Shown: positions 27,367 through 61,060 of the stretch, in pieces
How positions within the stretch are numbered: the first letter of the stretch is position 1
Layout: each line of letters starts with the position of its first letter
From: a virus
IMG/VR virus record: IMGVR_UViG_3300045988_163836
Strand: one strand, 5' to 3'
Length of the DNA: 64,000 bases
Made by a program: the position numbers and the translations under genes
Notes under the pieces: generated by a model
Databases searched by the model: none
What the model saw: only the letters and a program-made list of their open reading frames with translations
Told to the model about the DNA's origin: nothing

Positions 27367-27394
27367 TTTTTTTATTCTCCTTTTACTCATAAAA

Positions 27395-36131: not shown

Positions 36132-36818
36132 TTAGGATTTCATTTTTTCTTTACGAGAACTATTTCGGCATTTTTTGCATATACTATAAAATCCATCTTT
36201 ACTTGTTTTATTATAGGAAAAATATTTATTGTGAGCCAATTTAATTTGCCCACATCTACTGCATTTTTTATACTTACCTTTTTCTTGAGTTGTATAATAC
36301 CATTCTAAATATTTATCAACAGCTTTATCAGCAATAAGCTTTGGTATTTTATTGCGGAATAAACTTGATATATATTCTAAGCTGTGAGTAATATTAAATT
36401 CTTCTTGTAAAATTTTTTGAATCTCTATATTTTGTAATCCATCAATTTTACATTCTACAATGCGCATTAACATAGGATAATCAGCCAAGGCTTCATCGCA
36501 AATATTTTCAAAATCATAAATAAGATACCAAGTATCATCTTCAAAACGATCCCAACTATCTTCTTTTAATCGAGAATAATTACATAAGATACAAGAGCAA
36601 ATTTCAGGATTCATCAATGAGATTCCTTCTGGAATTGGATATCCATCATCATCAAATACTTTTACGTCTTCATCTAATTTAATTTTATACTTAGATCGTG
36701 TAAGCTTTACTGGTACTATTGGTTTTCGATAAGCATTTTTAATAATATATTGGTCTTTGCGCATTTCTATTAATGCCTTTTTTATAGTGAAAGCATCTTT
36801 ACCACTTACTACTTTCAT
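36132..36818 (-). CDS. Zinc-ribbon protein of 228 aa, a candidate late-gene regulator. It has no TAG and is readable in the standard code.
   Basis: Intact track ORF with a GGGAAG RBS before the ATG at 36816-36818. It carries a C-terminal CxxC...CxxC and an internal CxC..C. It is the first long gene of the minus-strand operon and contains no TAG in 228 codons. Confidence 0.45.
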   Translation of the reverse strand: MKVVSGKDAFTIKKALIEMRKDQYIIKNAYRKPIVPVKLTRSKYKIKLDEDVKVFDDDGYPIPEGISLMNPEICSCILCNYSRLKEDSWDRFEDDTWYLIYDFENICDEALADYPMLMRIVECKIDGLQNIEIQKILQEEFNITHSLEYISSLFRNKIPKLIADKAVDKYLEWYYTTQEKGKYKKCSRCGQIKLAHNKYFSYNKTSKDGFYSICKKCRNSSRKEKMKS

Positions 36819-36905
36819 TTTTGCTTCCCAAGTTGTAATAGCGTCTTTTAATTGTTTTAAGCTAGGAATTTCTTCTAAATCTTTTTTTGTAATTGTAACT
36901 TTTGG

Positions 36906-37190
36906 CTAAAATATCATATTTTTATCACTATTAATTAAATTATATATACCATCTTCACCATTCTCTAACTGGGAAACAAGTCCTTCGAAAGAAGTTTCAC
37001 GTTTATTAACTGTCATTAATCTATTATCAGTTAATATTTTCTTTTCTTTTTTTTCTTGTTTCTCCATACATAGAATTAAATAATCTGCGAGGATTTCTAA
37101 ATACTTTTCATTAGGATTTGGATTTTCCTCTAAAATTTTTTTTACTAATTCATTTCGTTCTTCAGGAGTTTCAAGAGTATAATCTAATTT
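36906..37190 (-). CDS. Small protein of about 94 aa with a TTG start after GGAGG. It terminates at TAG, assuming the standard code.
   Basis: Track ORF 36906..37253. RBS GGAGG with 8 nt of spacing to a TTG at about 37188-37190. It ends at the TAG at 36906-36908. If TAG were sense it would fuse in frame with 36132..36818. Confidence 0.35.
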   Translation of the reverse strand, partial: KLDYTLETPEERNELVKKILEENPNPNEKYLEILADYLILCMEKQEKKEKKILTDNRLMTVNKRETSFEGLVSQLENGEDGIYNLINSDKNMIF

Positions 37191-38378: not shown

Positions 38379-38656
38379 TATAAAAATTGTTTTCCAAAAT
38401 TGAAATGATTATCGTTTTCCGAAATTGAAAATGAGTTTAGATTATTGTCCCGTTTTTTGAAATTGAAATTGAGTTTAGAAATTATTTTGCCAGGAAAGAC
38501 TTTATTACATTAAATTGAAAAAGTTTTTCACGAAACACTGCCCCCCCACTTCACTTGACTAAAGTGTTAAAGTCTATTGTCTTACTTTACTTGAGTGAAG
38601 TGAGTTAGATACGACTAACCCCCAAAAAAAATATTTCGATTTTTGAAAAAAAATAC

Positions 38657-38690
38657 TTGACAATTCCGTGCATAGGTGCTATTCTATAAT
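38657..38690 (+). promoter_or_regulatory. Early promoter (TTGACA ... TATTCT/TATAAT).
   Basis: ttgacaattccgtgcataggtgctattctataat. The -10 element could be TATTCT at 17 nt spacing or TATAAT at 22 nt. Confidence 0.4.
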
Positions 38691-38767
38691 CAGAAATTGA
38701 CCACGGGACAACGCAAGCAAGGCAAAACGCCAAGCGAAAAAAATTCAAGAAATTTTGAAAAAAGTCC

Positions 38768-38796
38768 TTGACAAGTCGGAAGTCCTATGGTACAAT
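38768..38796 (+). promoter_or_regulatory. Strong early promoter (TTGACA-17-TACAAT with TG extension), followed by a roughly 260-nt T-poor leader.
   Basis: ttgacaagtcggaagtcctatggtacaat. Confidence 0.6.
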
Positions 38797-39056
38797 GAGT
38801 ACAACGAAAGCAAGGGAACACAAACAACGCAAGCCCTTGCAAATGTAGTAGAATGACCGGAAAGAGGCCGAAGCACCGAACGGCGTTGAACCTTGACAAG
38901 TGAATGTAAGCCGAGCGTCTACACCACATAGCGGACGCAATGGTAGAACATGAAAAGTGTGGTGCAAGCCGTAGGGCAGTCCAACGCCTATGGCAGATAG
39001 CAACACGGACAGCTGACAACTAACAGTCAAATAATATGTAAAGGATTGGTAAAATC

Positions 39057-39461
39057 ATGGTATATACAATTAAAACAAGCAAGGAAGACAAGGAAAAAGC
39101 AATCAAGGCAGAGCTTGTCTATCAGGCTAAAGATATTCTGTCTGACCTTGCACAGTATTATAAATCAGGGGACAAGTTCGACTATGAAGGCGTCCTTGAC
39201 ACCTACCACTGTTTCGCGGCGAAGAATATCCAGCAATGGGATAATCTTACATGGGCCATAGAGTCGGCAGAGTATGACTTGGAGCATACCGACTATAATA
39301 TGGATATGGAAGCCGGCAATCCATGTGCCGCATATGAGGCCGCCTACGAGAAGCTGACAGACTTACAGGACGAAGCCGAAGAATGGGCGAACACCTTTGA
39401 GCATATGTTCGAGGACTTCTTTAATAAGCTGTATGACCTGTTATATGGTGAAGAAGCATAA
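39057..39461 (+). CDS. Acidic hypothetical early protein, 134 aa. First gene of the early operon.
   Basis: Track ORF with RBS AAAGGA. It is strongly D/E-rich. Confidence 0.55.
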   Translation: MVYTIKTSKEDKEKAIKAELVYQAKDILSDLAQYYKSGDKFDYEGVLDTYHCFAAKNIQQWDNLTWAIESAEYDLEHTDYNMDMEAGNPCAAYEAAYEKLTDLQDEAEEWANTFEHMFEDFFNKLYDLLYGEEA

Positions 39462-39514
39462 GCTTCTTCACCCATTCACCCAACAACCAACTGACAATAT
39501 ATGGAGGTATTATT

Positions 39515-39850
39515 ATGAACCGTATCAACAGAAGAACCGCACGCAAGGAAGCTATGATGAACACTATCGAGCGTGTTAATACTGCTATCAGCAAGGTCAG
39601 ATTCTCTGACCCTGATGGCAAGGCCACCTTCCACAAGCTCTTGGAGAAGAAAGACTATATCGCTGAACAAATCGCCGAAGCCAGCTACACCGAATACTCG
39701 ATGAAGGCTGACTATAATGAGGTCAAACGCATTCTCTCTCATATGGATGAAGGTGGCTGTGCTGACTGGGTCAAGTGGGATATCGAGCAGCTGGCAGCAA
39801 GTCGGCGTCGCTGGTCTATCGCAACAAGTAAGCAGATTTGGTTGGGCTAA
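39515..39850 (+). CDS. Hypothetical early protein, 111 aa.
   Basis: Track ORF with RBS GGAGG before the ATG. Confidence 0.55.
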   Translation: MNRINRRTARKEAMMNTIERVNTAISKVRFSDPDGKATFHKLLEKKDYIAEQIAEASYTEYSMKADYNEVKRILSHMDEGGCADWVKWDIEQLAASRRRWSIATSKQIWLG

Positions 39851-39885
39851 TTGCCCAACCAACCACAAGAAAGGGGATAACATTA

Positions 39886-40073
39886 TGTACGCTATCTATA
39901 ATCACACCACTGGCAAGTATGGCATTATCTACCACAGCCTGACCGTAGCACGGTCTATGGCTCATGCTTACAGCATATGGGCAAAGAATGACAGAGATGT
40001 CATTGATATGCAAACTGGTGAAGTTATGAGTCAGTTCAGCAAAGGACACGAAACTTACAGAGCCAAGGGTTAA
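39886..40073 (+). CDS. Hypothetical early protein, about 62 aa.
   Basis: An internal ATG of track ORF 39717..40073, preceded by AAAGGGGA. Confidence 0.45.
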
Positions 40074-40107
40074 AACCCTTGGCTTCCAATAGAAAGGATA
40101 ATACAAT

Positions 40108-40407
40108 ATGGCAACTGTACGAAATCCCTACGCTGAAATCCGTTTTCTTGATAAGAACAATGTTCAAACTGATTATTGCAGATGGCAATTATCCAGCACA
40201 TTCAACTGCCCTTGGCAGCCTGCCTTCTACCGCGAACTCGAAGAAAAACTCTACATCATGCAGGAACTGGAAATCGTAGGGTTCGGCAGTCGGTCTGCGG
40301 TATTTACTTCTGGTCTGCTGACTACCTACCATTTCACAAACTATCAGATTGTACAGGCAATCGAGCATACGGCCGACCACCTGACGTTAGTGGTGAGGGA
40401 CATTTGA
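40108..40407 (+). CDS. Hypothetical early protein, 99 aa.
   Basis: Track ORF with RBS AAAGGA. Confidence 0.5.
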   Translation: MATVRNPYAEIRFLDKNNVQTDYCRWQLSSTFNCPWQPAFYRELEEKLYIMQELEIVGFGSRSAVFTSGLLTTYHFTNYQIVQAIEHTADHLTLVVRDI

Positions 40408-40475
40408 GTCCCTCTACCGCTTACTAACCGCACAATCGAGCACATGGATTGAATTTTTGGAAAGGAATTTTTGAA

Positions 40476-40628
40476 ATGAAAAATCTCAAGCTGGCGTTGA
40501 CCTTATCCGGTATTATAATTTTCCTCTGGGTCAGCATTTCATTTTGCAATGTAGTAGCACATAACAATCCGGCTGGAGGGGCTTATGAATATCCCTCTTG
40601 GAATTTCTTCGTGATGATGGACGAGTGA
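40476..40628 (+). CDS. Small membrane peptide, 50 aa.
   Basis: Hand-translated as MKNLKLALTLSGIIIFLWVSISFCNVVAHNNPAGGAYEYPSWNFFVMMDE. RBS GGAA. Confidence 0.35.
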   Translation: MKNLKLALTLSGIIIFLWVSISFCNVVAHNNPAGGAYEYPSWNFFVMMDE

Positions 40629-40684
40629 AGGCCATATGGCCTTCACTTAAAATGAAATGAATTAACAGAAAGGAAATATCTGAT

Positions 40685-40996
40685 ATGATTAACATTCGCA
40701 CAATCAAGAAACTGGCTGACGGCGATGGCCTAACACTTAAAAATGGAAAAATCAAGAGGTACAAGAGTGGCTATCAGGTAGCTACTAATGGCGTCGAGGT
40801 CATCAGTCCTGAAATGGCAATACAGGCGGTTCGAGAGTTCAAAGGCACATGCGGCATTTGGCTTGAAAATGGCAGATACTACATTGACATTTCTAAACGA
40901 GTGTCCACAAAACGCGAGGCAGTTGAAATTGGCAGGAAATGTAATCAGCTTTCAATTTACAGATGGCGTGGAAATCCTGCCTGCCTTTACATTTAA
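40685..40996 (+). CDS. Hypothetical protein, 103 aa. Paralog of 41019..41336.
   Basis: The track ORF starts MINIRTIKKLADGDGLTLKNGKIKRYKSGYQV, compared with MINVRTIRKMQDGDTLNIKNGKIKKYKGGFQV in the neighbour. Confidence 0.55.
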   Translation: MINIRTIKKLADGDGLTLKNGKIKRYKSGYQVATNGVEVISPEMAIQAVREFKGTCGIWLENGRYYIDISKRVSTKREAVEIGRKCNQLSIYRWRGNPACLYI

Positions 40997-41018
40997 TATT
41001 TGAGAGGAGAAATAAAAA

Positions 41019-41336
41019 ATGATTAACGTGAGAACTATTCGGAAAATGCAGGATGGCGATACCCTGAACATCAAGAACGGAAAAATCAAAAAGTACAAGG
41101 GCGGTTTTCAGGTGAATATCGCAACATATGAATGCGAACAGCCCGAAAAGGCAATGGAAATTGCCAGAACCCTGAACCGAATGATTGGAAATTGCAGTAT
41201 TCAATTCAAAAATGGAAAATATTACGTCAGCACCACTGAACACGCCTACACCAGACGGCAGGCAAGAGAAATTGCAAATGAAATGGGCGTAAATAAGATT
41301 TATGAATGGCAGAATCTGGCTCATATGGCAGTTTGA
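41019..41336 (+). CDS. Hypothetical protein, 105 aa. Tandem paralog of 40685..40996.
   Basis: Track ORF with RBS GGAGGAG. Confidence 0.55.
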   Translation: MINVRTIRKMQDGDTLNIKNGKIKKYKGGFQVNIATYECEQPEKAMEIARTLNRMIGNCSIQFKNGKYYVSTTEHAYTRRQAREIANEMGVNKIYEWQNLAHMAV

Positions 41337-41437
41337 TCCTGAAATTCCAAGGGCTGGAAATTGGAAACAGTTTCCAGCCCATTTTTCAAATCATCTTCTT
41401 TAATTCATTATCACTTTAATTAAATAAATTGCCTCGC

Positions 41438-41505
41438 CGGGGCGTGGCGAAATTGATATATCCACAGCAAGCTCGCCACGCCCCGCATTTTCCATTTAAT
41501 ACCAA
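41438..41505 (+). terminator. Long GC-rich hairpin terminator.
   Basis: ctcgccggggcgtggcga ... tcgccacgccccgc followed by atttt. Confidence 0.5.
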
Positions 41506-41649
41506 TTCCGAATATTTCCAGCCAAATTCTACCATATTTGACATTACATTCCATTTCCCATATCCTACCAGCTTATGGTATATAATTCCATACCAAATAT
41601 TTCCAGAATCTTTGTGCATATTGACGAATAAAAAAATTTGACTTTCCTA

Positions 41650-41678
41650 TTGACATTTGCTATAGGGTGTGGTAATAT
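41650..41678 (+). promoter_or_regulatory. Early promoter (TTGACA-17-TAATAT with TGTG extension).
   Basis: ttgacatttgctatagggtgtggtaatat. Confidence 0.55.
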
Positions 41679-41683
41679 ATAAT

Positions 41684-41698
41684 TGTTCCAAGGGAACA
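41684..41698 (+). promoter_or_regulatory. Operator-like palindrome TGTTCC-aag-GGAACA just downstream of the promoter.
   Basis: A perfect 6-bp inverted repeat. A related site lies at 51136-51153. Confidence 0.4.
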
Positions 41699-41725
41699 GA
41701 TAAAAATGAAATGGAGATACAAAAA

Positions 41726-41893
41726 ATGACTACTGAAAAAATCGCTGAACTGCTGAACGAATGGATTGATAATGACCATGATTTTAGTGCTGAATCTATG
41801 AACGATTTCTGCAACACATATGCCCGCAATTATGACGAGTATATGGGTCTGTGGTACACAGTCTGCGGTTGCATCGAGGATGAGGAGGGCTAA
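41726..41893 (+). CDS. Small hypothetical protein, about 55 aa.
   Basis: An internal ATG of track ORF 41669..41893, preceded by GGAGA. Confidence 0.4.
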   Translation: MTTEKIAELLNEWIDNDHDFSAESMNDFCNTYARNYDEYMGLWYTVCGCIEDEEG

Positions 41894-41897
41894 CATC

Positions 41898-42038
41898 ATG
41901 TATGAGTTCGAGATGTACAATGTCAACACAAAAAAAATTGAAACTGCATATGGCTACTCCCTAGCAGACGCTAGGGAGAGAAGCCCGAAGTATAACAGCC
42001 GTGAATGGGTTTGTCTAATGTCTACTTATATTGATTAA
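41898..42038 (+). CDS. Small hypothetical protein, 46 aa.
   Basis: GAGGAGGG then the ATG at 41898. In frame with track ORF 41820..42038. Confidence 0.4.
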   Translation: MYEFEMYNVNTKKIETAYGYSLADARERSPKYNSREWVCLMSTYID

Positions 42039-42051
42039 GGGGGAAATGAAA

Positions 42052-42240
42052 ATGAAAATGTCTGAATTTGTAAATAACGTCCTTGATAAGGATATGCTGA
42101 TTGAACTTATTAAACACCTTCCTTCTTGTGAAGCCTGTCCTTTCCAAAAGGCTTGTGAGAAAGCGGTTAATGATAATCCGGATGAATCTTGCGAACAGTT
42201 TCTGAACCGTTGGATTGAAGATGATAGGAACGAGGGCTAA
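42052..42240 (+). CDS. Small Cys-rich hypothetical protein, about 62 aa.
   Basis: AAGGGGG RBS, then one of several tandem ATGs (MKMKMSEF). It has a C..C..C..C pattern. Confidence 0.4.
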   Translation: MKMSEFVNNVLDKDMLIELIKHLPSCEACPFQKACEKAVNDNPDESCEQFLNRWIEDDRNEG

Positions 42241-42270
42241 AAAGCCCTCTTCCAAAAGGAGGAAATTAAG

Positions 42271-42594
42271 ATGGATATTACAAAATTGCAAGTCAGTAAA
42301 CATTTCAAGGAAGACCGCTTGGACAGATATGTTGAAATTCAAATGAACACCGGACTTGGCGAACCTGTGGCAAAATTCAAATATGAGGACAAATGGCAGA
42401 TTATTACAAGCACGGGAGTGATTTTGATTACAGATAGCCGGATGGAATTTCTAATCACTTTGTATTATGTCAACATGGACAAAGCAACTGCAATTTTCAG
42501 ACGAAACGGGCAGATGAAAATGCCGAAAGTAGTATATGACGCAATTCAAAAGAACATGGCGAAAAAGCTAATCAAACATAGAAAGGAAAAATAA
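42271..42594 (+). CDS. Hypothetical protein, 107 aa.
   Basis: Track ORF with RBS AAAGGAGG. Confidence 0.55.
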   Translation: MDITKLQVSKHFKEDRLDRYVEIQMNTGLGEPVAKFKYEDKWQIITSTGVILITDSRMEFLITLYYVNMDKATAIFRRNGQMKMPKVVYDAIQKNMAKKLIKHRKEK

Positions 42595-42596
42595 AA

Positions 42597-42824
42597 ATGA
42601 AAATCGAGTATGAAAAGCCCAGACAGGTTATCCACTTCGCAGCTCTGGATATTGGAACTGTATTCAAATGTCCATCCTATGATACAGTTTATATAAAAAC
42701 TGAATGCGTAGATAATGACGGTGATGAAATCAATTCGATTGATTTATCTACTGGAGAACTTGATTGTTTTGCTGAGGATACAAAAGTCTACGCCGTAGAT
42801 GCTACATTATATGTTAAGGAGTGA
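42597..42824 (+). CDS. Hypothetical protein, 75 aa.
   Basis: Track ORF that abuts the previous stop. Confidence 0.5.
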   Translation: MKIEYEKPRQVIHFAALDIGTVFKCPSYDTVYIKTECVDNDGDEINSIDLSTGELDCFAEDTKVYAVDATLYVKE

Positions 42825-42830
42825 TAAAAA

Positions 42831-43043
42831 ATGGAAGGATATAAAACCTGGAAGTATCTGGTAATTAACTTCCTCCCTACAAAAGACTGGCCGCGATTGT
42901 TTTTTGTAGAAGCTTCGTGTCGTTCGGAAGCTGAACATTATATTCAAAAACACTGTGGAAAAGATTGTATGCTGGTGGATAAGTACGATGAATTTGTTGC
43001 AAAAATTCTTGACTATCCCGAAATTCCGCATGATAAATTCTAA
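42831..43043 (+). CDS. Hypothetical protein, 70 aa.
   Basis: Track ORF with RBS AAGGAG. A terminator hairpin follows at about 43046-43075. Confidence 0.5.
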   Translation: MEGYKTWKYLVINFLPTKDWPRLFFVEASCRSEAEHYIQKHCGKDCMLVDKYDEFVAKILDYPEIPHDKF

Positions 43044-43361
43044 TTTCCATTTGAATTTCCTCCCATATCTTGGGAGGAAATTCTATTTTGAAAATTATAA
43101 AAAAAAATAATATAATTTTTATATAAAAAAAATAATTTTTATTTCTGTTTCAATTCTATAATTTTCCAGTCAAAAAATCAAATGCGGCAAATTTGGCAAT
43201 CCCATAATTTGGAAGGGGAATTTGAGCCAGCCGCGATCCAACGCCGCGGCTGGAATTTCGCGAGTTAAAGTGCTAACGTAAAAAAGTTTTCCAAATCCTT
43301 CCAGCCCAGCCCTTGGAAAATTTTCCCAAAATGTTTGTGTAATTTGACGAATATTTTATGC

Positions 43362-43390
43362 TTGACTTCTGGTATGCCCTGTGCTATAAT
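43362..43390 (+). promoter_or_regulatory. Early promoter (TTGACT-17-TATAAT).
   Basis: ttgacttctggtatgccctgtgctataat, preceded by a GC hairpin terminator at about 43230-43262. Confidence 0.6.
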
Positions 43391-43411
43391 AAGGATACAA
43401 AAGGAAAGGAA

Positions 43412-43804
43412 ATGATAAAAATGAAAATTTACATGGCTGGAGCGTTCTTCCGCCCTGAGACAAAATCAAGAATTGATTCATATGCGGCAGGTTTCCGGCG
43501 GCTTGGGTATGATGTATTTGTTCCGCAAGAACATACTGTCCCGAATGCTTGGGATATGTCGCAGGAAGATTGGGCAAGGGAAGTTTTCAAAATGGATGTT
43601 GCCGCAATTCAAGAATGTGATATTCTATTTGCTGTATATGATGGTCTATACTCTGATTCTGGAACAGCTTGGGAAATCGGGTATGCTTATGCCCATGGGA
43701 AAAATATCCAAATCAGTGTAAATAATGGTGTAAAAGATATGTCAATTATGCCATTCGCAAGTGCTTGGGCTATTGAAAACTATAAAAATATCAAATTAGT
43801 TTGA
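43412..43804 (+). CDS. Nucleoside 2-deoxyribosyltransferase-family protein (NDT / DNPH1-like), about 130 aa.
   Basis: 'MKIYMAGAFF...' together with 'DSGTAWEIGYAYAHGK' matches the family-defining motifs of the NDT fold. RBS AAAGGAAAGGAA. Confidence 0.6.
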   Translation: MIKMKIYMAGAFFRPETKSRIDSYAAGFRRLGYDVFVPQEHTVPNAWDMSQEDWAREVFKMDVAAIQECDILFAVYDGLYSDSGTAWEIGYAYAHGKNIQISVNNGVKDMSIMPFASAWAIENYKNIKLV

Positions 43805-43813
43805 AAAAAACAC

Positions 43814-43842
43814 TTAACAAATCCGCTTGTATCTGATATAAT
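43814..43842 (+). promoter_or_regulatory. Early promoter (TTAACA-17-TATAAT).
   Basis: ttaacaaatccgcttgtatctgatataat. Confidence 0.5.
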
Positions 43843-43875
43843 AAAGATACTCCAAAAGAGAAAGGAAATGATAAA

Positions 43876-44349
43876 ATGATTAAGGAATTGTGCTTCGATC
43901 TTGATGGAACTCTGGTTGACCTCTATGGGGTTGAAGATTGGCTTGATAAGATTCGAGCCTATGACCCTACACCTTATCAGACCGCCGAACCGCTGGTTGA
44001 TATGGCAGAACTTGCCTGTCTACTCCGTAGCTTGCAGAATTGCGGTATCAATGTTGCGGTTATCACTTGGCTGTCAAAAGAGCCGAACAAGCAGTATGAT
44101 GATGAAGTCAGAAAAGCAAAGAGAGCTTGGCTGAAAGAATATGGTTTTCCATTTGACAGTTTGCGATGTGTAGCCTATGGGACGCCGAAGCATAAGATTG
44201 AAGCCGCAAGACTTGCTGATGATGAAGAAGCCCTGATTTTTGATGATGATGCAAGAGTCCGCAGAGATTGGGACTTGGGCGGAGCAATCGACCCCACGAC
44301 CACAAACATCCTTGATGTGCTGAAAGAAATTTTGAATGGACTGGAATAA
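43876..44349 (+). CDS. HAD-superfamily phosphatase, 157 aa (5'(3')-deoxyribonucleotidase-like).
   Basis: The N-terminal 'FDLDGTLVD' is HAD motif I (DxDGT). Its size and layout resemble small phage deoxynucleotidases. Confidence 0.5.
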   Translation: MIKELCFDLDGTLVDLYGVEDWLDKIRAYDPTPYQTAEPLVDMAELACLLRSLQNCGINVAVITWLSKEPNKQYDDEVRKAKRAWLKEYGFPFDSLRCVAYGTPKHKIEAARLADDEEALIFDDDARVRRDWDLGGAIDPTTTNILDVLKEILNGLE

Positions 44350-48923: not shown

Positions 48924-49310
48924 ATGGAAAAGATTAAAGCCCCCACCCGCAAGGAAATATTCACTACTGTTTCTGACTTCCTCGCCCAGCATGATGCAGA
49001 CACTGACCTGATTGATTTCATCAATCACCAGATTGAACTGCTGGACAACAAGAAGGAAAACAAGAAGCAGGCCAAGGAGCAGGAAGAAAACGCCGCCTAC
49101 TCTGATGCAATCTATGAGCAGATGGCATTCGAGCGTAAGTACAGCGTTGCAGAGCTGATGAAGGAGCTTCCGATGGTCAATGACTGGAACACCAACCACG
49201 AAACTGAACTGTCGGTTCAGAAGCTCGCAAGCCTGTTGAAGCCGCTGGTCGATGGTGGCAAGGTCATTAAGACCACCGAGAAACGCAGAGTGTTCTACAC
49301 TAAGGCGTGA
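48924..49310 (+). CDS. Hypothetical protein, 128 aa. Paralog of 51202..51579 (module copy A, gene 1).
   Basis: Track ORF. Its C-terminus 'GKVIKTTEKRRVFYTKA' compares with 'GRVIKTTEKRRVYYTKA' in the paralog. Confidence 0.55.
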   Translation: MEKIKAPTRKEIFTTVSDFLAQHDADTDLIDFINHQIELLDNKKENKKQAKEQEENAAYSDAIYEQMAFERKYSVAELMKELPMVNDWNTNHETELSVQKLASLLKPLVDGGKVIKTTEKRRVFYTKA

Positions 49311-49356
49311 TAAACCAAGGGGCGGAGAAATCCGCCCCACTATTTAAGGAGAGCCT

Positions 49357-49755
49357 ATGAGAGAGTTGACTGAAAAGGAATGGGCAAAAGTCGATAATCT
49401 TGTTGACAAGCTGGAATGTTCGATTGATGAAGCAGTTGACATTCTGGACGCCGACAAAGCTATTGACCGCAATCAGAAGGTTGATTTTGATTTAAGTCCA
49501 GAAGAACATAAGCAAGCAATGAAACTTGCTAATGTCAAAGAGCATACAGTTAAGAAAAGCAATGTCTATCGCCCGCGTAAGCCTAATGAAATTAAAGGTG
49601 CGATTATCGCCGGTTTGTCAAAATATTTGACAGAAACGGCAGATTTTGAAGTGATTGATGAAGAAATCACAAATAAAGAGCGTACAATCATGTTTACAAG
49701 TGGCGGCAACCGCTACGAATTGACCCTGATACAAAAGAGAGCATCAAAAACTTGA
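49357..49755 (+). CDS. Hypothetical protein, 132 aa. Paralog of 51672..52034 (module copy A, gene 2).
   Basis: Track ORF with a shared architecture ('...RYELTLIQKR' vs '...YRLTLMRPRK'). A terminator follows at 49756-49793. Confidence 0.5.
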   Translation: MRELTEKEWAKVDNLVDKLECSIDEAVDILDADKAIDRNQKVDFDLSPEEHKQAMKLANVKEHTVKKSNVYRPRKPNEIKGAIIAGLSKYLTETADFEVIDEEITNKERTIMFTSGGNRYELTLIQKRASKT

Positions 49756-51201: not shown

Positions 51202-51579
51202 ATGGAAAAGAAGATTACCTATGCTCAGGCTCTGAACACCGTTCTGAACAATGAGAACATCGTCCTCGCGTCTGATGTTCGTGAGAAGCTGGAAGCCCTG
51301 CTTGCTTCTGTTTCCAAGAAGTCCGGCGAAAAGAAGGAGACTGCACAGCAGGTCGAGAACGCCACGATGGTGGAGCGGATTTATCAGGAGATGGAAGCCA
51401 ACCGGACTTACTCCATTGCCGAACTGATCAAGGAGCTTCCGGTTGTGGCAGATTTCAATGCTAATCATGAGAATGATATGTCCACTCAGAGGATGGCAAA
51501 TCTGCTCAGAACCCTTGTGGAAGATGGCAGGGTGATTAAGACCACTGAAAAGCGGCGTGTCTACTACACCAAGGCATGA
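51202..51579 (+). CDS. Hypothetical protein, about 125 aa (module copy B, gene 1).
   Basis: An internal ATG (MEKKITYAQ) of track ORF 51169..51579, preceded by the conserved leader GAAAGGAATTGATA. Confidence 0.55.
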   Translation: MEKKITYAQALNTVLNNENIVLASDVREKLEALLASVSKKSGEKKETAQQVENATMVERIYQEMEANRTYSIAELIKELPVVADFNANHENDMSTQRMANLLRTLVEDGRVIKTTEKRRVYYTKA

Positions 51580-51671
51580 GCGAAAAAGAAGTAAGGGGAG
51601 AAAGCTCCCCTTACTTCTCCCAGCTAGTTCTAGCTAGTTCCTAGTAAACAAAATTCTAATAGGACGGTAAA

Positions 51672-52034
51672 ATGTTAATGACCGCTGAAAAGTTGGCAAA
51701 TTCGCTTAAAATTTCCATTGAAGAAGCCAAACAGGTTTTGGAAATGGACAAGCGAATTGATAGGGGCGAAAAGCTGTTTGAGTTGCCGCCGGAGCTTGAA
51801 GCAGGAGCAAAAAAGGCAAGACGTGCCGACCGGAAGAAAGTGGAAAATGTAAGGCGGGAGCGAAAACCTGATGAAGATAAAAGGGAACTAATCCAGTATT
51901 TGGAAAGTTCCTTGGAAGATGCCTACCCCGATTTGGATTTGGGTAATATTACCATTGCAAATCCAGAACGAGAAATGGAATTTACTTACAATGGAATTAA
52001 ATACCGGCTGACCCTGATGCGCCCAAGGAAATAG
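51672..52034 (+). CDS. Hypothetical protein, 120 aa (module copy B, gene 2). It ends in TAG.
   Basis: Track ORF. The stop is TAG at 52032-52034. Reading through would add about 40 aa across two terminator hairpins (52040-52075 and 52118-52160). Confidence 0.5.
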   Translation: MLMTAEKLANSLKISIEEAKQVLEMDKRIDRGEKLFELPPELEAGAKKARRADRKKVENVRRERKPDEDKRELIQYLESSLEDAYPDLDLGNITIANPEREMEFTYNGIKYRLTLMRPRK

Positions 52035-52259
52035 ATGGAAGATGGAAACATCTTCCATCCTTTTTGGAATCATAATTGGAAAATTTTTCCAAGGAAAATA
52101 TTGGAACAGATGGTAATTTCAACCGGTCGCGTACAGTTGACGCGACCGGAATTTTGATTTAATTTGATAATTGTAAATTTTCCGAAAAAAAATTCGGACA
52201 TTTTACGAAAATTGATTTTTCCCGAATTTTATAGTATTATGTAAAAGGAGGTAAAAATT

Positions 52260-52880
52260 ATGAACAAATATGAATTAGCAAAATATATTAATACAACAGT
52301 TGGAATGGTAGAAACCAATTTTCCCTTGCTCTGCTCTAAAAATTTAGCTAAAGGGTATTTAATTACAAAAATTGGTAAAGGTGAAACGGCTGATTATACT
52401 ATTCAAGAAGTAGAACCATAGATATTAGATAAAAAATTTTTTTCTAAAAAACGAGAACTTGATAATTATTCTCATTTATCTGAAGAAGAATTAAAAAATG
52501 AAAAATGGATAACTACTTATTGTTCTAACTTGTACGAAGTATCAGATTTAGGAAGGGTTAGAAAAAAATATGATAAAAAAATTTTATAGGGAACTATAAT
52601 AGATGGATATTAGTATGTAGAATTAGATTATCATAGATATGGAATGAATAGAATTGTATTACAATCTTGGCACCCTAGCCCTGATTTCCAAAATTTGACA
52701 GTAGACCATATTGATGGAAAAAGAGGGAATAATAGGTTATCAAATTTAAGATGGGGAACTAATAAAGAGAATACTGCTTGGATGTTAATGAATAGGAAAG
52801 AAATAACAAAGGAAACAACTCGATTGATAAATTAGTATGGGTATGATGAAGTATTAAAAATACTTCAATTAATTAAATAA
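52260..52880 (+). mobile_element. HNH homing endonuclease gene of about 206 aa. It is intact only if four in-frame TAGs are read as sense. It sits in an AT-rich island.
   Basis: Perfect RBS AAAGGAGGTAAAAATT then ATG. 'YEVSDLGRVRKK' (NUMOD4-like) and 'VDHIDGKRGNNRLSNLRWGTNKEN' (HNH motif). Track ORF 52644..52835 is the C-terminal piece. In-frame TAGs lie at about 52419, 52611, 52632 and 52836. With the standard code only a 53-aa stub is made. Confidence 0.6.
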
Positions 52881-53838: not shown

Positions 53839-54450
53839 TTATTTATATCTAAATGGCTATAATCTACCTGCTATGTTCCCACAAGGTTTATATAATAAAA
53901 TTAACGCAAACTCTATAGTTTTTAAATCAGCAGATGTTATATTTCTATCACATAATAAATCCTCTCCTTTTATAATTGGTTTAAATTCAATATTATCTCT
54001 CTACTCATTTAATAGTTTATATACATATAAACTATTATTATGATTTTTAATATTTCTTTTATGTTCATTCCATCTTTTATTAAAATCAACAGTACTACCT
54101 ATATAAATTAACTATCCATTCCTATATATACCATATACTCCACCATCACATACCTATGATACATTTTTTTTAGACTATCGTTCAAGTAATTTTCGTCTTT
54201 CTTCCTACTATCTTGCAACCATAGCATCAAATTCATCTTTGGTTCCAAACCAATTATAATATTTCTATTTATATGTCCAATAAGGTTTAGTTAATTTTTT
54301 CTAATCATCTACACATATTTCTTTATAATTATCTGGAACTATCATAGCTATATATTCTCTATCTAACCAATCATTATATTTACTAAATGATGATAATGGT
54401 TCTAATGTTCTATAAATATTTAACAAATTCTCACGATTCTATAATTTCAT
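53839..54450 (-). mobile_element. GIY-YIG homing endonuclease gene of about 204 aa. It is intact only if about 9 in-frame TAGs are read as sense. It sits in an AT-rich island.
   Basis: Hand translation gives '...GGVYGIYRNG(Q)LIYIGSTVDFNKRWNEHKRNI...LYVYKLLNE...', the GIY-(10)-YIG..R..H..E module. There is no TAA/TGA until the TAA at 53839-53841. A hairpin terminator (gtaggctaat...tagcctac) lies at about 53796-53822. Confidence 0.55.
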
Positions 54451-54544
54451 ATTAAATTCATAATTTTTCCTTTCAATTTTTGATTTCATTTTTCAATTCA
54501 TTTCTTTGCAACCACAAGGCCAACACCGCCATTCAAGAAAATAC

Positions 54545-54845
54545 CCTGTTTTGTCCTATTGTGGACCGAATGGGACACAATAGGACAAATATGTTATGTT
54601 CGATGTCCTGAATAGGACAAATCGGACAGGACATTTTCTTTCTTCAGCTTTTGTCGCATTTGTCGCATTTGTCCTAAACTAAGTCATTTTGCTAATTTTT
54701 TTAGATTTTTATTTAGTTATGTCGCATTTGTCCTATCGACATTTTAATACTTTCATTTAAAAATAGGACAAAACTCATTTGTCCCATTCAAGACAAATGT
54801 CTGCTTTTGTCTCATTTGTCGCATTTGTCCTATAGGTCCCATTTA
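54545..54845. repeat. Iteron/palindrome array. It is a candidate replication origin, partition site or multi-site operator.
   Basis: Palindrome 1: TTGTCCTATTGTG (54551-54563) with CACAATAGGACAA (54576-54588). Palindrome 2: GATGTCCTG (54602-54610) with CAGGACAT (54627-54634). Direct repeats: TTGTCGCATTTGTCGCATTTGTCCTA (54651-54677), GTCGCATTTGTCCTA (54721-54735), TTTGTCGCATTTGTCCTATAGG (about 54816-54835). Extra TAGGACAAA half-sites are present. Confidence 0.6.
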
Positions 54846-54870
54846 ATATCTTCTATGCTAATTCAAATAT

Positions 54871-55296
54871 CTACGGAGCTTTATAATCTACTCTGTCTAA
54901 TGCTCTGGTACTAATCTTCTAACCAAAAATTTTAAAATAAGCATCAACTGCTTCCTATTTAGTAGGAACTCCATTTTTATCTTTAACAGCTTTTACTATC
55001 GCTTTTTCTACATCTTCTTTATAAATTCTCTACTATGCTCCACCAGCTGCTCCTGCTTCTGCTTTCTATTTACTAACCTCTTTAGACTTATCAATAGTAA
55101 GTTTCATAGACTATAACAGCATCATAATAACTCCATAATCTTTATCATTCTCATCAGGCTCAATACCATACAATCCATAGTTAGTTAATGCACTATATAA
55201 TTTATATTTTAATTCTACATCTTCATTCTATTCAATAGTTTCTCTCATATTAGCCCAGAAGGTAAATTTTTCTTTATTCGGCTTTTCAACTGCCAT
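54871..55296 (-). CDS. Hypothetical protein of about 141 aa (TAG-recoded; five internal TAGs). The lower boundary is uncertain.
   Basis: GGAGGTAATTATTT then the ATG at 55294-55296. If the TAG at 54871-54873 is also read through, the frame stays open into the iteron array as far as a TGA near 54787. Confidence 0.4.
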
Positions 55297-57080: not shown

Positions 57081-57374
57081 ATGGATAAAAACTTATTTGC
57101 TAAACTTACTACTCTTACCTCTGAAGCGGAAGCCAACAAGGAACGTGCGGCAACTGAAAGAGCAGAAGAAATCATCACAAATAATACGCCGGCAATGCTA
57201 CAAGCGGCAACAAATGGTGCATATGCCTATACCATTGTCATTTCTCCCGATGATACTCCGTCATCAAGCAATTATACCGTTAAGAAACTTCAAGAAATTC
57301 TTAATTCTAATAAGTTTACAACTTGTTTTACCAATAATACGATGATTGTAAGGTGGCGTCCGAATGAATCTTGA
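57081..57374 (+). CDS. Hypothetical protein, 97 aa.
   Basis: Track ORF with AGAGGAAAAATAAAAA then ATG. Confidence 0.55.
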   Translation: MDKNLFAKLTTLTSEAEANKERAATERAEEIITNNTPAMLQAATNGAYAYTIVISPDDTPSSSNYTVKKLQEILNSNKFTTCFTNNTMIVRWRPNES

Positions 57375-57639
57375 CGAATATCTTGACCGTGCAACTGAAA
57401 TGCGGAATGAGATTGCGGCCTATGATGAGAAGATAGTACGCCTTTTGGACAAAAGAGTTCAATTGGCAAAAAACTTGGTAGAACTCAAAAAAGAACATTC
57501 TCGTCCCGCATATACACCAATAGTAGAAGAAAAGAAGATAGAGTATTTAAGCACTCTAACTTCTTATCCAGATTTAATTAAAATGATATGGCCTATGATT
57601 ATGGGCTATAGCCGCATCCCCTATAACGAAAGGATTTAA
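57364..57639 (+). CDS. Hypothetical protein, 91 aa.
   Basis: Track ORF overlapping the upstream stop. Confidence 0.5.
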   Translation: MNLDEYLDRATEMRNEIAAYDEKIVRLLDKRVQLAKNLVELKKEHSRPAYTPIVEEKKIEYLSTLTSYPDLIKMIWPMIMGYSRIPYNERI

Positions 57640-57793: not shown

Positions 57794-57821
57794 ACTAAAA
57801 TTAAGAAAGGAAAAGACGTAA

Positions 57822-59192
57822 ATGTATAATGTATATATTTGTAAAGTAAAAAACATTAGACCTGCGGAAAATGCTGACCGTCTGAATACCTGTGAAGTAT
57901 TTGGTATTACTACCATTGTTGATAAATCCGTGAATGAAAATGACCTTTACGTCTATTTTCCTACGGATGGTCAGATTAGCGAAGAGTTTGGTAAGGCAAA
58001 TGATCTCTTCCGCCGCCAGGATGAAAATGGTAATCCGGCTGGTGGTTTCATTGACCCTGTGAAGCGTAATATTGGTGCAATTCGTCTACGCGGCAATAAG
58101 TCTGAAGGCCTGGTACTTCCGCTTACTTGTCTTGCTTCTTTTGGCGACATTAGCAATCTAGCTGAAGGTGATATTGTATCTACCTTTAATGGTCATGTGA
58201 TTGCCGAGAAGTACGTGCCGATGCATAAGCCCAGAGCTTCACAACCTACTGCACGCGGCGAACGCGACCGTAAGTCTGCAAAGAAATGCCGCATTAAGTA
58301 CCCGTTCTTCGCAGAACATATTGATACTCCGCAGCTTCGTTTTAATATGGATATGTTTAAACCGGGTGATATCATTTGCCTGACCGAGAAAGTTCATGGT
58401 ACCAGCTCTCGAAACGCATATCAAACTGCAATTATTGGTGAAAACGGTTTCTTCCTTACTAAACTTATTGCACACAGCAATTGGTTACCGAAGAAATGGC
58501 GTATGTCTGCACAGTCCCACCTTACTCCTAAAACTGAAATGCGTTATCTAATTGGCACTCGCCGCACTGTTCTTACCAATAATAGTGTTGGCGGTTTCTA
58601 TGGTAATGATGATTTCCGTAGAGCTTGGGGCGAACGTTTCAAGGGTAAGCTTCTGCCCAATGAGGAATGCTTCGGTGAAATTGCAGGATTCTATGCTCCT
58701 AACGCACCTATTATGACGCCGGGTGATAACACTAAAACTAAAGATAAAGCATTTATCAAACAATATGGTAAGACCACTACCTTCTCTTATGGTTGTTCTC
58801 CTACTGGTGACAATAAGCATCTTAATCGCTATTTTGTTTATCGTATGACTTATACCACTCCAGAAGGAGTAGTAATTGAATATCCTTGGGACCTTGTTAA
58901 GCAACGTGCTGAACAGATGGGTTTTGAAACTGTGCCTGAACTTGAACGTTTTATTTACACCACTGAAGAGGATTTTCTAGCACGAATTGCTAAATATGAG
59001 GATATTCCTTCTACGATTGATTCTTCTCATGTTATTGAGGGCGTAGTTATTCGTAAGATGAACGGCACTCGTTTCGATGTTGCAAAAGATAAATCTTATA
59101 ATTTTAAAGTGCTTGAGAACCTGATTAAGGTTGATGCAGAAGTGCCTGACATGGAAGAAATTGAAGAAGAAATGACTTTGGAGGATAATTAA
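57822..59192 (+). CDS. ATP-dependent RNA ligase, 456 aa, with an N-terminal OB-like domain (Rnl2/Rnl5-like nucleotidyltransferase).
   Basis: 'LTEKVHGTSSRN' matches the KxHGxN motif I variant of the Rnl2/DraRnl-type ligases. The N-terminal roughly 150 aa look OB-like, which is the Rnl5 arrangement. RBS AAGGAAAAG. Confidence 0.5.
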   Translation: MYNVYICKVKNIRPAENADRLNTCEVFGITTIVDKSVNENDLYVYFPTDGQISEEFGKANDLFRRQDENGNPAGGFIDPVKRNIGAIRLRGNKSEGLVLPLTCLASFGDISNLAEGDIVSTFNGHVIAEKYVPMHKPRASQPTARGERDRKSAKKCRIKYPFFAEHIDTPQLRFNMDMFKPGDIICLTEKVHGTSSRNAYQTAIIGENGFFLTKLIAHSNWLPKKWRMSAQSHLTPKTEMRYLIGTRRTVLTNNSVGGFYGNDDFRRAWGERFKGKLLPNEECFGEIAGFYAPNAPIMTPGDNTKTKDKAFIKQYGKTTTFSYGCSPTGDNKHLNRYFVYRMTYTTPEGVVIEYPWDLVKQRAEQMGFETVPELERFIYTTEEDFLARIAKYEDIPSTIDSSHVIEGVVIRKMNGTRFDVAKDKSYNFKVLENLIKVDAEVPDMEEIEEEMTLEDN

Positions 59193-59792: not shown

Positions 59793-59879
59793 TCAAAGAG
59801 CCAGAGTAAATCTGGCTCTTTTATTTTTATAAAAAAATTTGTTAAAATATATATATAAAAATGAGGGAGAAAATAAATT

Positions 59880-60212
59880 ATGAAGTATGTTGCTTATGAT
59901 TATTTTGATAACTTCTATCCTGGTATTCTTGGTATCTGTAATACTGAAGCTGATGTGCAGGAACTGATTCTTGCCGCCGCCGAAGAAGAAGCATATAGGG
60001 CATTCCTTGATGATTATTATTATAATGAAACAGAAATTACAGTAAAACCTGGTGAAAATCCTATGGAAGTTTATCTCAATGATAAAGTTCTTGACTGGAA
60101 AGAGTATAATAAATTTAGATTTCCATTTGACGATAAAGATATTTCTTTCTATGGTTGGACTCTTCTTATGGCTGGTGAATATTATAACTATTCTATTGGA
60201 GAGGAGTACTAA
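59880..60212 (+). CDS. Hypothetical protein, 110 aa. Member 1 of a four-gene tandem paralog array.
   Basis: Starts MKY... and carries the motif 'CNTEADVQELILAAAEEEAY'. Confidence 0.55.
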   Translation: MKYVAYDYFDNFYPGILGICNTEADVQELILAAAEEEAYRAFLDDYYYNETEITVKPGENPMEVYLNDKVLDWKEYNKFRFPFDDKDISFYGWTLLMAGEYYNYSIGEEY

Positions 60213-60488
60213 ATGAAATATTTAATTTCTGAAATTGATGATGATGCTTGTTGTGAAATCCCTCGATATATTTGCAACACTCGTGCAGATGCCGAAGAAG
60301 CTATTCTGGCATTAACTGAAGAAGATGTATATTATCAAGCAATGTATGAAGGTGTAGATAATTTCTTCAATAACAGTTTTGAATTTAGAAAATCAAGACA
60401 TCCAGAAATGAAATGCAAAACTCATTACGGCACAGCTCTTTGGTTTATGAGTGGTCGATTTATTATTGAAGAATTAGGAGAATATTAA
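60213..60488 (+). CDS. Hypothetical protein, 91 aa. Paralog 2.
   Basis: Starts MKY... and carries 'CNTRADAEEAILALTEEDVYY'. Confidence 0.55.
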   Translation: MKYLISEIDDDACCEIPRYICNTRADAEEAILALTEEDVYYQAMYEGVDNFFNNSFEFRKSRHPEMKCKTHYGTALWFMSGRFIIEELGEY

Positions 60489-60490
60489 TT

Positions 60491-60784
60491 ATGAAAATTT
60501 ATACAGTTATAGATAGTAATAATTATGGTGAAATTAATAATTATGGTAATAACTATGAAGTATATTCTTTTAGAAATCTTAATGACGCACAAGAATTTGT
60601 TCTTTCATGCGTAGAACAAGAAAGTTTAAATACATATAATCATCTAATATCTATTTACACTGAAGAAAATGTTTTAACAGAATGGAAAAGATTAGCTTCT
60701 AAATATAACAAAACTCTTGAAGGTTATATACTTTATAAGGGCGGATATAATTTAAATGGAATTTATGAAAGTGAGCTTAATTAA
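60491..60784 (+). CDS. Hypothetical protein, 97 aa. Paralog 3 (divergent).
   Basis: Starts MKIY... and carries 'FRNLNDAQEFVLSCVEQE'. Confidence 0.5.
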   Translation: MKIYTVIDSNNYGEINNYGNNYEVYSFRNLNDAQEFVLSCVEQESLNTYNHLISIYTEENVLTEWKRLASKYNKTLEGYILYKGGYNLNGIYESELN

Positions 60785-61060
60785 ATGAAATATGTTGTTT
60801 GGGATAGTTGCAGTGATGATTTAATCTGCTGCGATAGCCGAGCCTCCGCCGAAGAACTTGTTCTATCTATCGCCGAAGAAGAAGCATTTATCGAATATAA
60901 TTATGGCATTAATAAACTTGATGATGCCGATACTCTTGAAGAATATACAGATACATTACGTGATTGGTGGAAGAAATATCAGTGTAGTAATAAATGTATT
61001 GCTCTTTTCTTTGGCGGAATTAATTACTACATTAGAGCTATTCCAAGTTTGGAGGATTAA
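60785..61060 (+). CDS. Hypothetical protein, 91 aa. Paralog 4.
   Basis: Starts MKY... and carries 'CDSRASAEELVLSIAEEEAF'. Confidence 0.55.
   Translation: MKYVVWDSCSDDLICCDSRASAEELVLSIAEEEAFIEYNYGINKLDDADTLEEYTDTLRDWWKKYQCSNKCIALFFGGINYYIRAIPSLED

Follow-up and report, generated by a model that had tools for sequence, protein, structure and literature searches.

What does an RNA ligase do in a phage that reads TAG as a sense codon across its late genes, and with which partners would it act? The question is raised by a gene at 57822-59192 on the plus strand of a 64,000-nucleotide (nt) stretch of IMG/VR virus record IMGVR_UViG_3300045988_163836 (hereafter the window). The source is a large TAG-recoding human-gut phage of 188 kb, terminase-related to phages of Bacillota hosts. 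A first-pass annotation made from the letters alone had reported an open reading frame (ORF) of 456 amino acids (aa), which we find at exactly these coordinates, and had proposed that it encodes an RNA ligase with a counter-defence role. Our data lead us to the view that the protein is an active ATP-dependent Rnl5 RNA ligase that performs the sealing step in RNA repair of the heal-and-seal kind, a reading to which we give a probability of roughly 0.7. The gene itself is unsurprising – it can be placed with confidence in a known and very populous phage enzyme family, an ordinary but sound annotation – and what is gained is a confident functional label for a gene of an uncultured phage.

Fold, catalytic motifs and family of the ligase

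Structure was read from an AlphaFold model (mean predicted local distance difference test score, pLDDT, 81.6) and conservation from two alignments: A1, which holds 41 family members (58-96% identical), and A3, which spans five phage lineages together with DraRnl. The DraRnl sequence came from the Deinococcus MP1 megaplasmid and the T4 Rnl2 sequence used for alignment is identical to PDB 1S68/2HVQ; the C-terminal halves of the ligase and DraRnl were aligned separately. The features upon which the argument rests are as follows.

57822-59192, plus strand: Rnl5-type ATP-dependent RNA ligase gene, ATG to TAA, 456 aa, no in-frame TAG; PF09414, PHROG 968, partial TIGR02306 and NgrRnl structural match
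57822-58223, plus strand: N-terminal OB domain, aa 1-134, beta-rich in the model; includes D49 (YFPTD) and K130 (EKYVP)
58224-58322, plus strand: basic low-confidence linker, aa 135-167; pLDDT below 50 at 135-156 and 162-167; poorly conserved in A1
58323-59156, plus strand: nucleotidyltransferase (NTase; adenylyltransferase) domain, aa 168-445, alpha/beta; two phage-clade insertions, at about aa 200-240 and about 295-320
58389-58406, plus strand: motif I KVHGTS, residues 190-195, within ICLTEKVHGTSSRN; K190 is the predicted AMP-accepting lysine
58560-58568, plus strand: candidate motif Ia, R247-R248-T249, invariant in A1; likened to T4 Rnl2 K54-R55-T56 by pattern only
58671-58679, plus strand: motif III FGE (E286), invariant; aligns with DraRnl IFGEVV and T4 Rnl2 E99 (VFGEFAG)
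58833-58844, plus strand: motif IIIa FVYR, aa 338-341; aligns with DraRnl VFVFKV and T4 Rnl2 YVFD (F119/D120)
59037-59042, plus strand: motif IV E406-G407, invariant; HVIEGVVIR against DraRnl HIREGVVV and T4 Rnl2 E204 (AEGYVLK)
59085-59093, plus strand: motif V K422-D-K424; VAKDKSYNF against T4 Rnl2 AIKCKNSKF (K225/K227); predicted beta strand at 420-424
59157-59189, plus strand: short acidic C-terminal tail, aa 446-456; pLDDT below 50, disordered, not a domain

Fold and motifs support assignment of the protein to the Rnl5 (DraRnl/NgrRnl-type) ligases, as a divergent phage subfamily. Rnl5 enzymes are defined by an N-terminal OB domain and a C-terminal NTase domain without a C-terminal appendage (PMC4408790, PMC7261155, PMC5397189), and this is the arrangement found here: the OB domain is followed by the NTase domain, nothing is appended, and beyond motif V (which ends at aa 424) there is one helix and then the 11-aa disordered acidic tail. 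The top 13 Foldseek matches to the model were all NgrRnl, full length, at E 4e-14; DNA ligases and capping enzymes ranked clearly lower, and the OB domain resembled tRNA-binding OB folds of the Trbp111/CsaA type. Comparison of A1 with DraRnl by hhalign gave a probability of 97.7% from the OB domain through motif I. Among sequence profiles, PHROG 968 ('RNA ligase') matched near full length at E 4.5e-54, PF09414 (RNA_ligase) matched aa 185-421 with 31.5 bits (cutoff 27), PF21189 (PHA02142 OB-fold) fell just below its cutoff of 27 on aa 5-101 (26 bits), and the NCBIfam DraRnl model TIGR02306 (RNA_lig_DRB0094) matched aa 6-203 only, with 48.5 bits. Plain sequence comparison with solved structures matched Naegleria gruberi RNA ligase entries only, on the N-terminal domain.

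Domain order, Foldseek and hhalign agree in upholding the DraRnl/NgrRnl-type assignment of the first-pass annotation, and its OB-like domain of roughly 150 aa resolves into some 130 aa plus a linker of about 35 aa. The structure prediction and comparison with Rnl2 and DraRnl that it had recommended returned the order OB to NTase, as in Rnl5; the best matches lie outside the DNA ligase and capping families, and the lysine context of motif I is intact. The 'Rnl2' half of its 'Rnl2/Rnl5' label is wrong because the Rnl2-type C-terminal domain is absent. T4 Rnl2 and kinetoplastid REL1 lack the N-terminal OB domain and carry a C-terminal helical domain that is missing here; only the NTase core is Rnl2-like. 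An ATP-dependent DNA ligase or capping enzyme was rejected on the N-terminal rather than C-terminal position of the OB domain and on the lower rank of those families.

The motifs tell the same story. KVHGTS sits where the first reading had placed it, in the KxDG/KxHG context of the family, and K190 (TEKVHGTS) aligns with K165 of DraRnl (TEKLHGTQ) and K35 of T4 Rnl2 (EKIHGTN); K190, H192 and G193 are invariant in A1, and the same three together with T194 in A3, so the lysine context is kept in both. The remaining NTase motifs (Ia, III, IIIa, IV, V) are all present. Ia and V were assigned by conservation and pattern rather than by high-confidence alignment: R247 is invariant in A3, and the K-x-K-S of motif V is kept in five of the five phage lineages. 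K429, which one low-confidence alignment had offered as the motif V lysine, is not conserved across the phage lineages and was dropped. In NgrRnl the OB residues R4, D53 and K121 engage the ATP gamma-phosphate and metal (PMC7261155); D53 (YFEID) corresponds to D49 here and K121 (TKWEPP) to K130, both conserved, with no clear counterpart for R4. NgrRnl E312 and K326 were mapped indirectly, through DraRnl and T4 Rnl2, because a phmmer search of the PDB with the C-terminal half of DraRnl, aimed at the NgrRnl C-terminal sequence, returned nothing. In some homologues of about 590-813 aa an intein lies directly after motif I and splits the ligase match at about residues 195 and 228; P0135 and P0159 (800 and 813 aa) carry a Hint/intein-splicing domain and a LAGLIDADG endonuclease, P0130 (589 aa) the Hint/intein domain only.

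From DraRnl and NgrRnl the ligase differs in several ways. It is some 115 aa longer, with a longer basic linker and the acidic tail, and has two insertions, the first following motif I and the second lying between III and IIIa, that are common to the phage proteins and missing from DraRnl and NgrRnl; identity is only about 16% to NgrRnl (PDB 5COT) and about 27% to DraRnl (DR_B0094). NgrRnl R149 is apparently Gln (Q171) here, as in DraRnl, and whereas motif V of Rnl5 has a single Lys, the phage protein has K-x-K, as in Rnl2. The same insertions, the same K-x-K-S motif V and a polynucleotide-kinase-type linkage mark the annotated phage ligases of PHROG 968 (PBC2 gp157, Thrax1/3, Kirov, cluster-L mycobacteriophages with BobsGarage gp87 as an example, and Vibrio phage 2.275.O), which are full-length homologues with 28-43% identity. 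Their phages are annotated in the standard code and have the healing partner adjacent or within 3.3 kb, against at least 9.5 kb here.

That Rnl5 occurs in bacteriophages has been stated before (PMC7261155, PMC5397189), and the family proves abundant. By tblastn, full-length homologues are present in 366 deposited phage genomes, nearly all annotated 'RNA ligase', with identities of 42-43% in Bacillus phages PBC2, Thrax, Kirov and vB_BcoS-136 and about 28% in Mycobacterium, Gordonia and Microbacterium phages; the PBC2 record mislabels its enzyme '2'-5' RNA ligase'. A word-indexed search returned more than 4,200 homologue clusters at 90% identity, and at 50% identity an exhaustive search gave 2,023, of which 1,413 reached E 1e-10 or better; most are of 415-460 aa. 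This 'long Rnl5' clade, with its roughly 2,000 clusters, is repeatedly linked to RlaP, to kinases and to three phosphoesterase types, and offers a good entry point to the physiological substrates of Rnl5: the Rnl5 literature that we searched describes no biochemical study of a phage member.

Healing partners and their linkage to the ligase

A critical issue is whether enzymes that could heal RNA ends accompany the ligase. The window holds no RNA-repair domain besides the ligase itself, and neither a Walker-A scan nor tblastn with three Pnk-type kinases found a P-loop kinase in it; none was found in the first set of relatives' loci either. The exact ligase protein is also encoded on contig k119_314482 (ENA ERZ27229687; 188,240 bp), and in its positions 49,071-70,441, the stretch that was read, a 178-aa AAA_33 kinase-type protein (PF13671, 47.9 bits, Walker A GLSANGKT) lies on the same strand, starting 9.5 kb past the ligase stop, at about 68.7 kb in window coordinates and beyond the window end. 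In close relatives with a kinase 96-97% identical (and a ligase 90-91% identical where spanned), two further genes lie 6.6 kb past the kinase, about 16-17 kb from the ligase: they encode an RlaP (PF10127; 31.3 bits, cutoff 23) and a phosphoesterase of calcineurin-like type (PF00149, Metallophos; 51.3 bits). All three genes are on the ligase strand, 9.5-20 kb downstream of it. The kinase/phosphatase partner that the first-pass annotation had proposed to seek is thus found outside the window, the kinase on the exact contig and the phosphoesterase in close relatives. A scan of viral contigs with a kinase alignment had missed the relatives' contigs, a false negative that arose because the kinase of this phage is too divergent from the probes; it was found by reading the source contig.

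Within the window a HAD-like protein (43876-44349) was considered as the phosphatase of a Pnkp and rejected, its best match being to a 5'-3' deoxyribonucleotidase PHROG, with no HAD_PNKP match and no kinase domain. It follows a nucleoside 2-deoxyribosyltransferase (PF05014, 78.5 bits), and the pair (43358-44349, plus strand) is of nucleotide-salvage or DNA-modification type.

Other phages place healing genes closer to the ligase. In mycobacteriophage BobsGarage a bifunctional Pnkp (AAA_33 plus HAD_PNKP) lies 3.3 kb away. In Bacillus phage PBC2 the product of gp158 (L001 9277-10272), annotated 'hypothetical', fuses an AAA_33 kinase to an HD phosphohydrolase, and its gene starts 4 nt after the ligase; it is likely to be a polynucleotide kinase/phosphatase with a third type of phosphoesterase. 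Gut phage L012, whose ligase is 52% identical, has its kinase between two metallophosphoesterases, at a distance of 5 kb from the ligase, and within 7 kb of the ligase it encodes NAMPT, a macro domain, NadE, a metallophosphoesterase, the AAA_33 kinase and the second metallophosphoesterase. Among 80 kinase-centred viral loci, a ligase of this family lies within 3 kb in 22 and RlaP in 23, the typical order being ligase, RlaP, kinase. Adjacency of ligase and healing genes holds in PBC2, in L058-L072 and in the sister clade L106-L121.

The sister clade is instructive for the history of the locus. Its members have RlaP, phosphoesterase, ligase (41-46% identical) and then a conserved 166-aa gene, whereas in the lineage of the present phage (L099/L103) RlaP, phosphoesterase and 166-aa gene are found with no ligase at the sister-clade position. 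Judged by gene order, the ligase appears to be displaced some 19 kb upstream of the usual cassette, to a place after a chorismate mutase gene. L106 and L107 share a 166-aa gene 95% identical, with RlaP only 54% and phosphoesterase only 40-42% identical, values that indicate mosaic replacement.

Phage RNA ligases accompanied by kinases, by HAD, HD or calcineurin phosphatases, by RlaP and by NAD-salvage genes are a described counter-defence theme (PMC7824862, PMC12776372). RlaP-associated RNA repair operons were named by Burroughs and Aravind in 2016, according to PMC12776372 and PMC7824862. Here too PF10127 RlaP accompanies the ligase, and in many viral contigs it directly adjoins homologous ligases; in this phage it lies about 16 kb away. 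The heal-and-seal logic, in which a 5'-kinase and a 2',3'-phosphoesterase prepare the ends for an ATP-dependent ligase, is that of T4 tRNA repair (Pnkp plus Rnl1) and of bacterial Pnkp/Hen1, and bacterial Pnkp has a calcineurin-type phosphoesterase, as here. The differences are that those systems use Rnl1 or Rnl4, whereas here an Rnl5 and separate proteins are spread over about 20 kb and RlaP is added, and that the Hen1 methyltransferase of bacterial Pnkp/Hen1 was not seen here.

Between ligase and kinase, at L094 17400-18880 (about 65.2-66.7 kb in window equivalents, outside the window), are genes for an S-adenosylmethionine (SAM) synthetase – 385 aa in L094, in a 707-aa version in L005 – and for a T7 Gp5.9-like protein of the RecBCD-inhibitor family. 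Their presence suggests that this block is an anti-defence region.

Probable mechanism, rival functions and the proposed suppressor tRNA

By analogy with its family, K190 of the ligase would attack ATP to form ligase-AMP, with the OB domain (D49, K130) helping to orient the pyrophosphate leaving group; AMP would then pass to a 5'-phosphate end, and attack by a 3'-OH ribonucleotide end would seal the break. The 5'-phosphate could be supplied by the AAA_33 polynucleotide-kinase-type protein, a 2',3'-cyclic or 3'-phosphate could be removed by the calcineurin-like phosphoesterase, and lost 3' nucleotides could be re-added by the RlaP nucleotidyltransferase. Likely substrates are host and phage tRNAs, or other structured RNAs, nicked by host ribotoxins or anticodon nucleases. 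The general proposal of an RNA-repair or counter-defence role is sustained by the recurrent linkage of the ligase to RlaP and a polynucleotide-kinase-type gene, which makes it the best reading, though the role itself is one that we infer.

Two properties of the genome bear on this reading. With TAG taken as a sense codon, a contiguous minus-strand late/structural block emerges at 313-37445; in the standard code the window holds only 15 ORFs of at least 150 aa. The late block has 256 in-frame TAG, which at 21.7 per 1000 codons equals CAA in frequency (the plus-strand block has 1.6 per 1000); 109 of them lie in a giant 3,125-codon frame at 10793-20170. None of the genes for ligase, kinase, RlaP and phosphoesterase has an in-frame TAG, and all are in the standard-code block; they could therefore be translated before the late TAG-recoded genes. 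As to tRNAs, ARAGORN and Rfam found none of any kind in the window, and no tRNA with a CTA anticodon was found in about 108 kb, made up of the window with 10 kb of flank on the left and about 35 kb on the right, read in this genome or in close relatives. In a relative, eight ordinary tRNAs form an array some 9 kb past RlaP and phosphoesterase, about 30 kb downstream of the ligase. The sample of that relative also yielded a contig whose ligase is 96% identical, and the lengths of the two contigs, 157.5 kb and 30.2 kb, add up to some 188 kb.

L122 8797-13141 (IMGVR_UViG_3300029858_000001): 8-tRNA array

The phage thus carries, with evidence from its lineage for part of this, an RNA end-healing and sealing toolkit together with tRNAs of its own, and host attack on tRNA or other RNA is therefore probably part of its biology. 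The array has its oddities: in a 'tRNA-Phe(AAA)' the anticodon is preceded by G in place of U, and tRNA-Leu(CAA) and tRNA-Trp(CCA), of 95 and 88 nt, are unusually long. Near L108 14975-15050 there is a tRNA-like fragment that ARAGORN did not call.

Against the repair reading stand points of several kinds. Classic anticodon-loop breaks lie in single-stranded loops, and T4 uses Rnl1 for them; moreover, we know of no activity, substrate or host nuclease for any phage Rnl5. The partner genes are spread over about 20 kb and form no operon with the ligase in this phage, and for RlaP and phosphoesterase the sequences read are those of close relatives, not of the exact contig. How the two domains are oriented to each other is uncertain in the model (predicted template modelling score 0.56). 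The TIGR02306 score falls far short of the equivalog cutoff of 151.15, which makes the protein a member of a divergent phage subfamily and no DraRnl equivalog. Finally, characterised Rnl5 enzymes seal duplex nicks with 3'-OH and 5'-PO4 ends, needing RNA on the 3'-OH strand and preferring Mn2+ (PMC4408790, PMC5397189), and the sole physiological Rnl5 phenotype, that of DraRnl, concerns recovery from radiation damage (PMC5397189).

Some of these points would suit an enzyme that works alone, resealing 5'-P/3'-OH nicks made by metal-dependent tRNA nucleases of Toprim or PIN type (OLD, PARIS AriB), especially in tRNA stems, while the far-off kinase, RlaP and phosphoesterase would have other tasks or lesions to deal with. 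P2-OLD leaves 5'-P/3'-OH ends, and T4 Rnl1 or Rnl2 sealed a single anticodon-stem nick without end healing (PMC12445682); a tRNA stem nick is a duplex nick, the substrate that Rnl5 prefers (PMC4408790), and the variant is therefore coherent. It would also fit the likeness of the OB domain to tRNA-binding folds, and the position of the ligase after chorismate mutase, 16-17 kb from RlaP and phosphoesterase and out of the sister-clade cassette. We nonetheless regard it as unlikely, given the repeated tight linkage of the family to kinase and RlaP genes elsewhere, which marks healed ends as the usual substrate, and the retention of healing genes in this genome. DraRnl and NgrRnl tolerate DNA on the 5'-phosphate side of a nick, their need for RNA being confined to the 3'-OH strand (PMC5397189, PMC4408790). 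A role in DNA replication or repair can thus be envisaged, in which nicks with 3'-OH ribonucleotide ends (RNA-patched gaps, primer remnants) are sealed, as proposed for DraRnl, whose deletion renders D. radiodurans radiation-sensitive and delays genome reassembly (PMC5397189); in PBC2 a DNA ligase gene lies 2 kb from the RNA ligase. This we consider decidedly unlikely, because the conserved partners are RNA-specific: the ligase travels with enzymes that heal RNA ends and with RlaP, a nucleotidyltransferase specific to RNA (PMC12776372), rather than with replication genes, and the local neighbours are small early or anti-defence-type genes, the SAM synthetase and T7 Gp5.9-like protein included.

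The first-pass annotation went further and tied the ligase to a phage that depends on a suppressor tRNA. The abundance of TAG in the late block bears out one part of that claim; the tRNA itself did not appear in the 108 kb covered. Its argument that dependence on TAG decoding explains the ligase is not supported, since phages with standard-code annotation (PBC2, the cluster-L mycobacteriophages) have the same ligase and healing toolkit and no suppressor tRNA was found in those 108 kb; that a TAG-decoding phage is specially vulnerable to tRNA nucleases is possible, with no support here. Protection of an amber-suppressor tRNA – and hence of late-gene decoding – from host anticodon nucleases as the main task of the ligase is accordingly improbable in our estimation, even though the late block uses TAG 256 times as a sense codon, the TAG-free ligase can be made beforehand, the lineage has a tRNA array, and human-gut phages of the phAss-1 group recode TAG to Gln with suppressor tRNA-CTA genes, recoded relatives without such genes being known as well (PMC10607447). 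For phAss-1 itself, recoded and with three suppressor tRNAs, PMC10607447 mentions no RNA ligase, and it is absent among the 30 tblastn matches listed; its first 50 kb gave no positional guidance for a suppressor tRNA. A bolder idea, which we hold to be more improbable still, is that in the recoded lineage the Rnl5 moved from an ancestral RlaP-phosphoesterase cassette into the early standard-code block and, with its tRNA-binding-like OB domain, specialised in guarding tRNAs from host nucleases, above all the phage's own recoding tRNAs (a suppressor gene would then lie where the genome was not read). If true, the late genes could change code only with RNA repair in place. Almost certainly wrong, lastly, is the notion that the protein is no functional RNA ligase at all, being decayed or a DNA ligase or capping-type nucleotidyltransferase. 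The modest Pfam scores (31.5 and 26 bits) and the restriction of sequence similarity with solved Rnl5 structures to the OB domain could be cited for it; to be set against them are catalytic motifs all invariant in the 41 members of A1 and across distant lineages, the lower structural rank of DNA ligases and capping enzymes, an N-terminal OB domain where that of DNA ligases is C-terminal, and the inteins found directly after motif I in some homologues, an insertion typical of functionally constrained sites.

Transcription context and the recoded genome

The immediate surroundings of the ligase include the following features.

57364-57639, plus strand: chorismate mutase type II, 91 aa (PF01817, 50.5 bits), upstream of the ligase in the same orientation
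57806-57815, plus strand: Shine-Dalgarno-like, purine-rich AAAGGAAAAG, by direct sequence reading; the AGGA core stops 10 nt short of the ligase ATG
59795-59821, plus strand: strong terminator-like hairpin, 11-bp stem and T-run, 3' of the next small gene; from a consensus scan only

Chorismate mutase is an unusual phage gene. A single 50-aa ORF separates it from the ligase, relatives L005 and L094 keep the order chorismate mutase to ligase, and the two genes probably share a transcription unit, of which the hairpin at 59795-59821 is likely to be the end. Promoter-like matches do not exceed the number expected by chance. Shortly 3' of the ligase, at 59880-61060 on the plus strand, are four tandem paralogous ORFs of 91-110 aa with MKY/MKI starts and a common core ...A(E/D)E..L..(A/E)EE(E/D)..; a Pfam search with the four returned no match.

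As to the phage itself, low GC content and TAG recoding had led to the assumption of a crAss-like phage, which was rejected: terminase, portal and structural proteins match those of large Bacillota-host phages. The nearest terminases are those of Geobacillus E3 (47%), Enterococcus EF1/H1 (45%), phAss-1 (42%) and Bacillus PBC2 (34%), and the portal matches PHROG 2739. A copy of the ligase 92-93% identical occurs on a 189.5-kb human-gut scaffold.

The distribution of TAG is not wholly uniform. No in-frame TAG occurs in the probable major capsid gene (27467-28603) or in the gene next to it (26800-27423). In the otherwise TAG-free block, homing-endonuclease-type genes at 52260-52880 (plus strand), 53839-54489 (minus) and 54775-55296 (minus) have 4, 10 and 9, and recoding is therefore not strictly limited to the structural block; Pfam searches on L094 returned HNH_3, GIY-YIG and DUF6291 for these genes. 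The late block is headed by a sigma-factor-like gene (36132-37067, minus strand; PHROG 5767, E 1.9e-46) with an HNH/zinc-ribbon-like C-terminus and one in-frame TAG, which could be a switch for late transcription.

The ORF-poor interval 38400-43300 (GC 0.40-0.46) was considered as non-coding RNA, pseudogene or a region of other recoding, and each was rejected, for the interval is conserved with ordinary coding periodicity: it is 83-90% conserved in relatives, and the third-position periodicity of substitutions is that of small plus-strand genes in the standard code.

39042-39461, 39452-39850, 39705-40073, 40102-40407 and 42241-42594, plus strand: small genes, by substitution periodicity

The same interval contains a tandem duplication of about 330 nt (40664-40997 and 41016-41336). 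Further along the plus strand a two-gene cassette is present in two copies (48924-49755 and 51202-52157) that flank a 285-aa PHROG 20187 gene; the 128-aa and 132-aa proteins are paralogous to the 125-aa and 161-aa proteins, with a common C-terminal ...VIKTTEKRRV(F/Y)YTKA.

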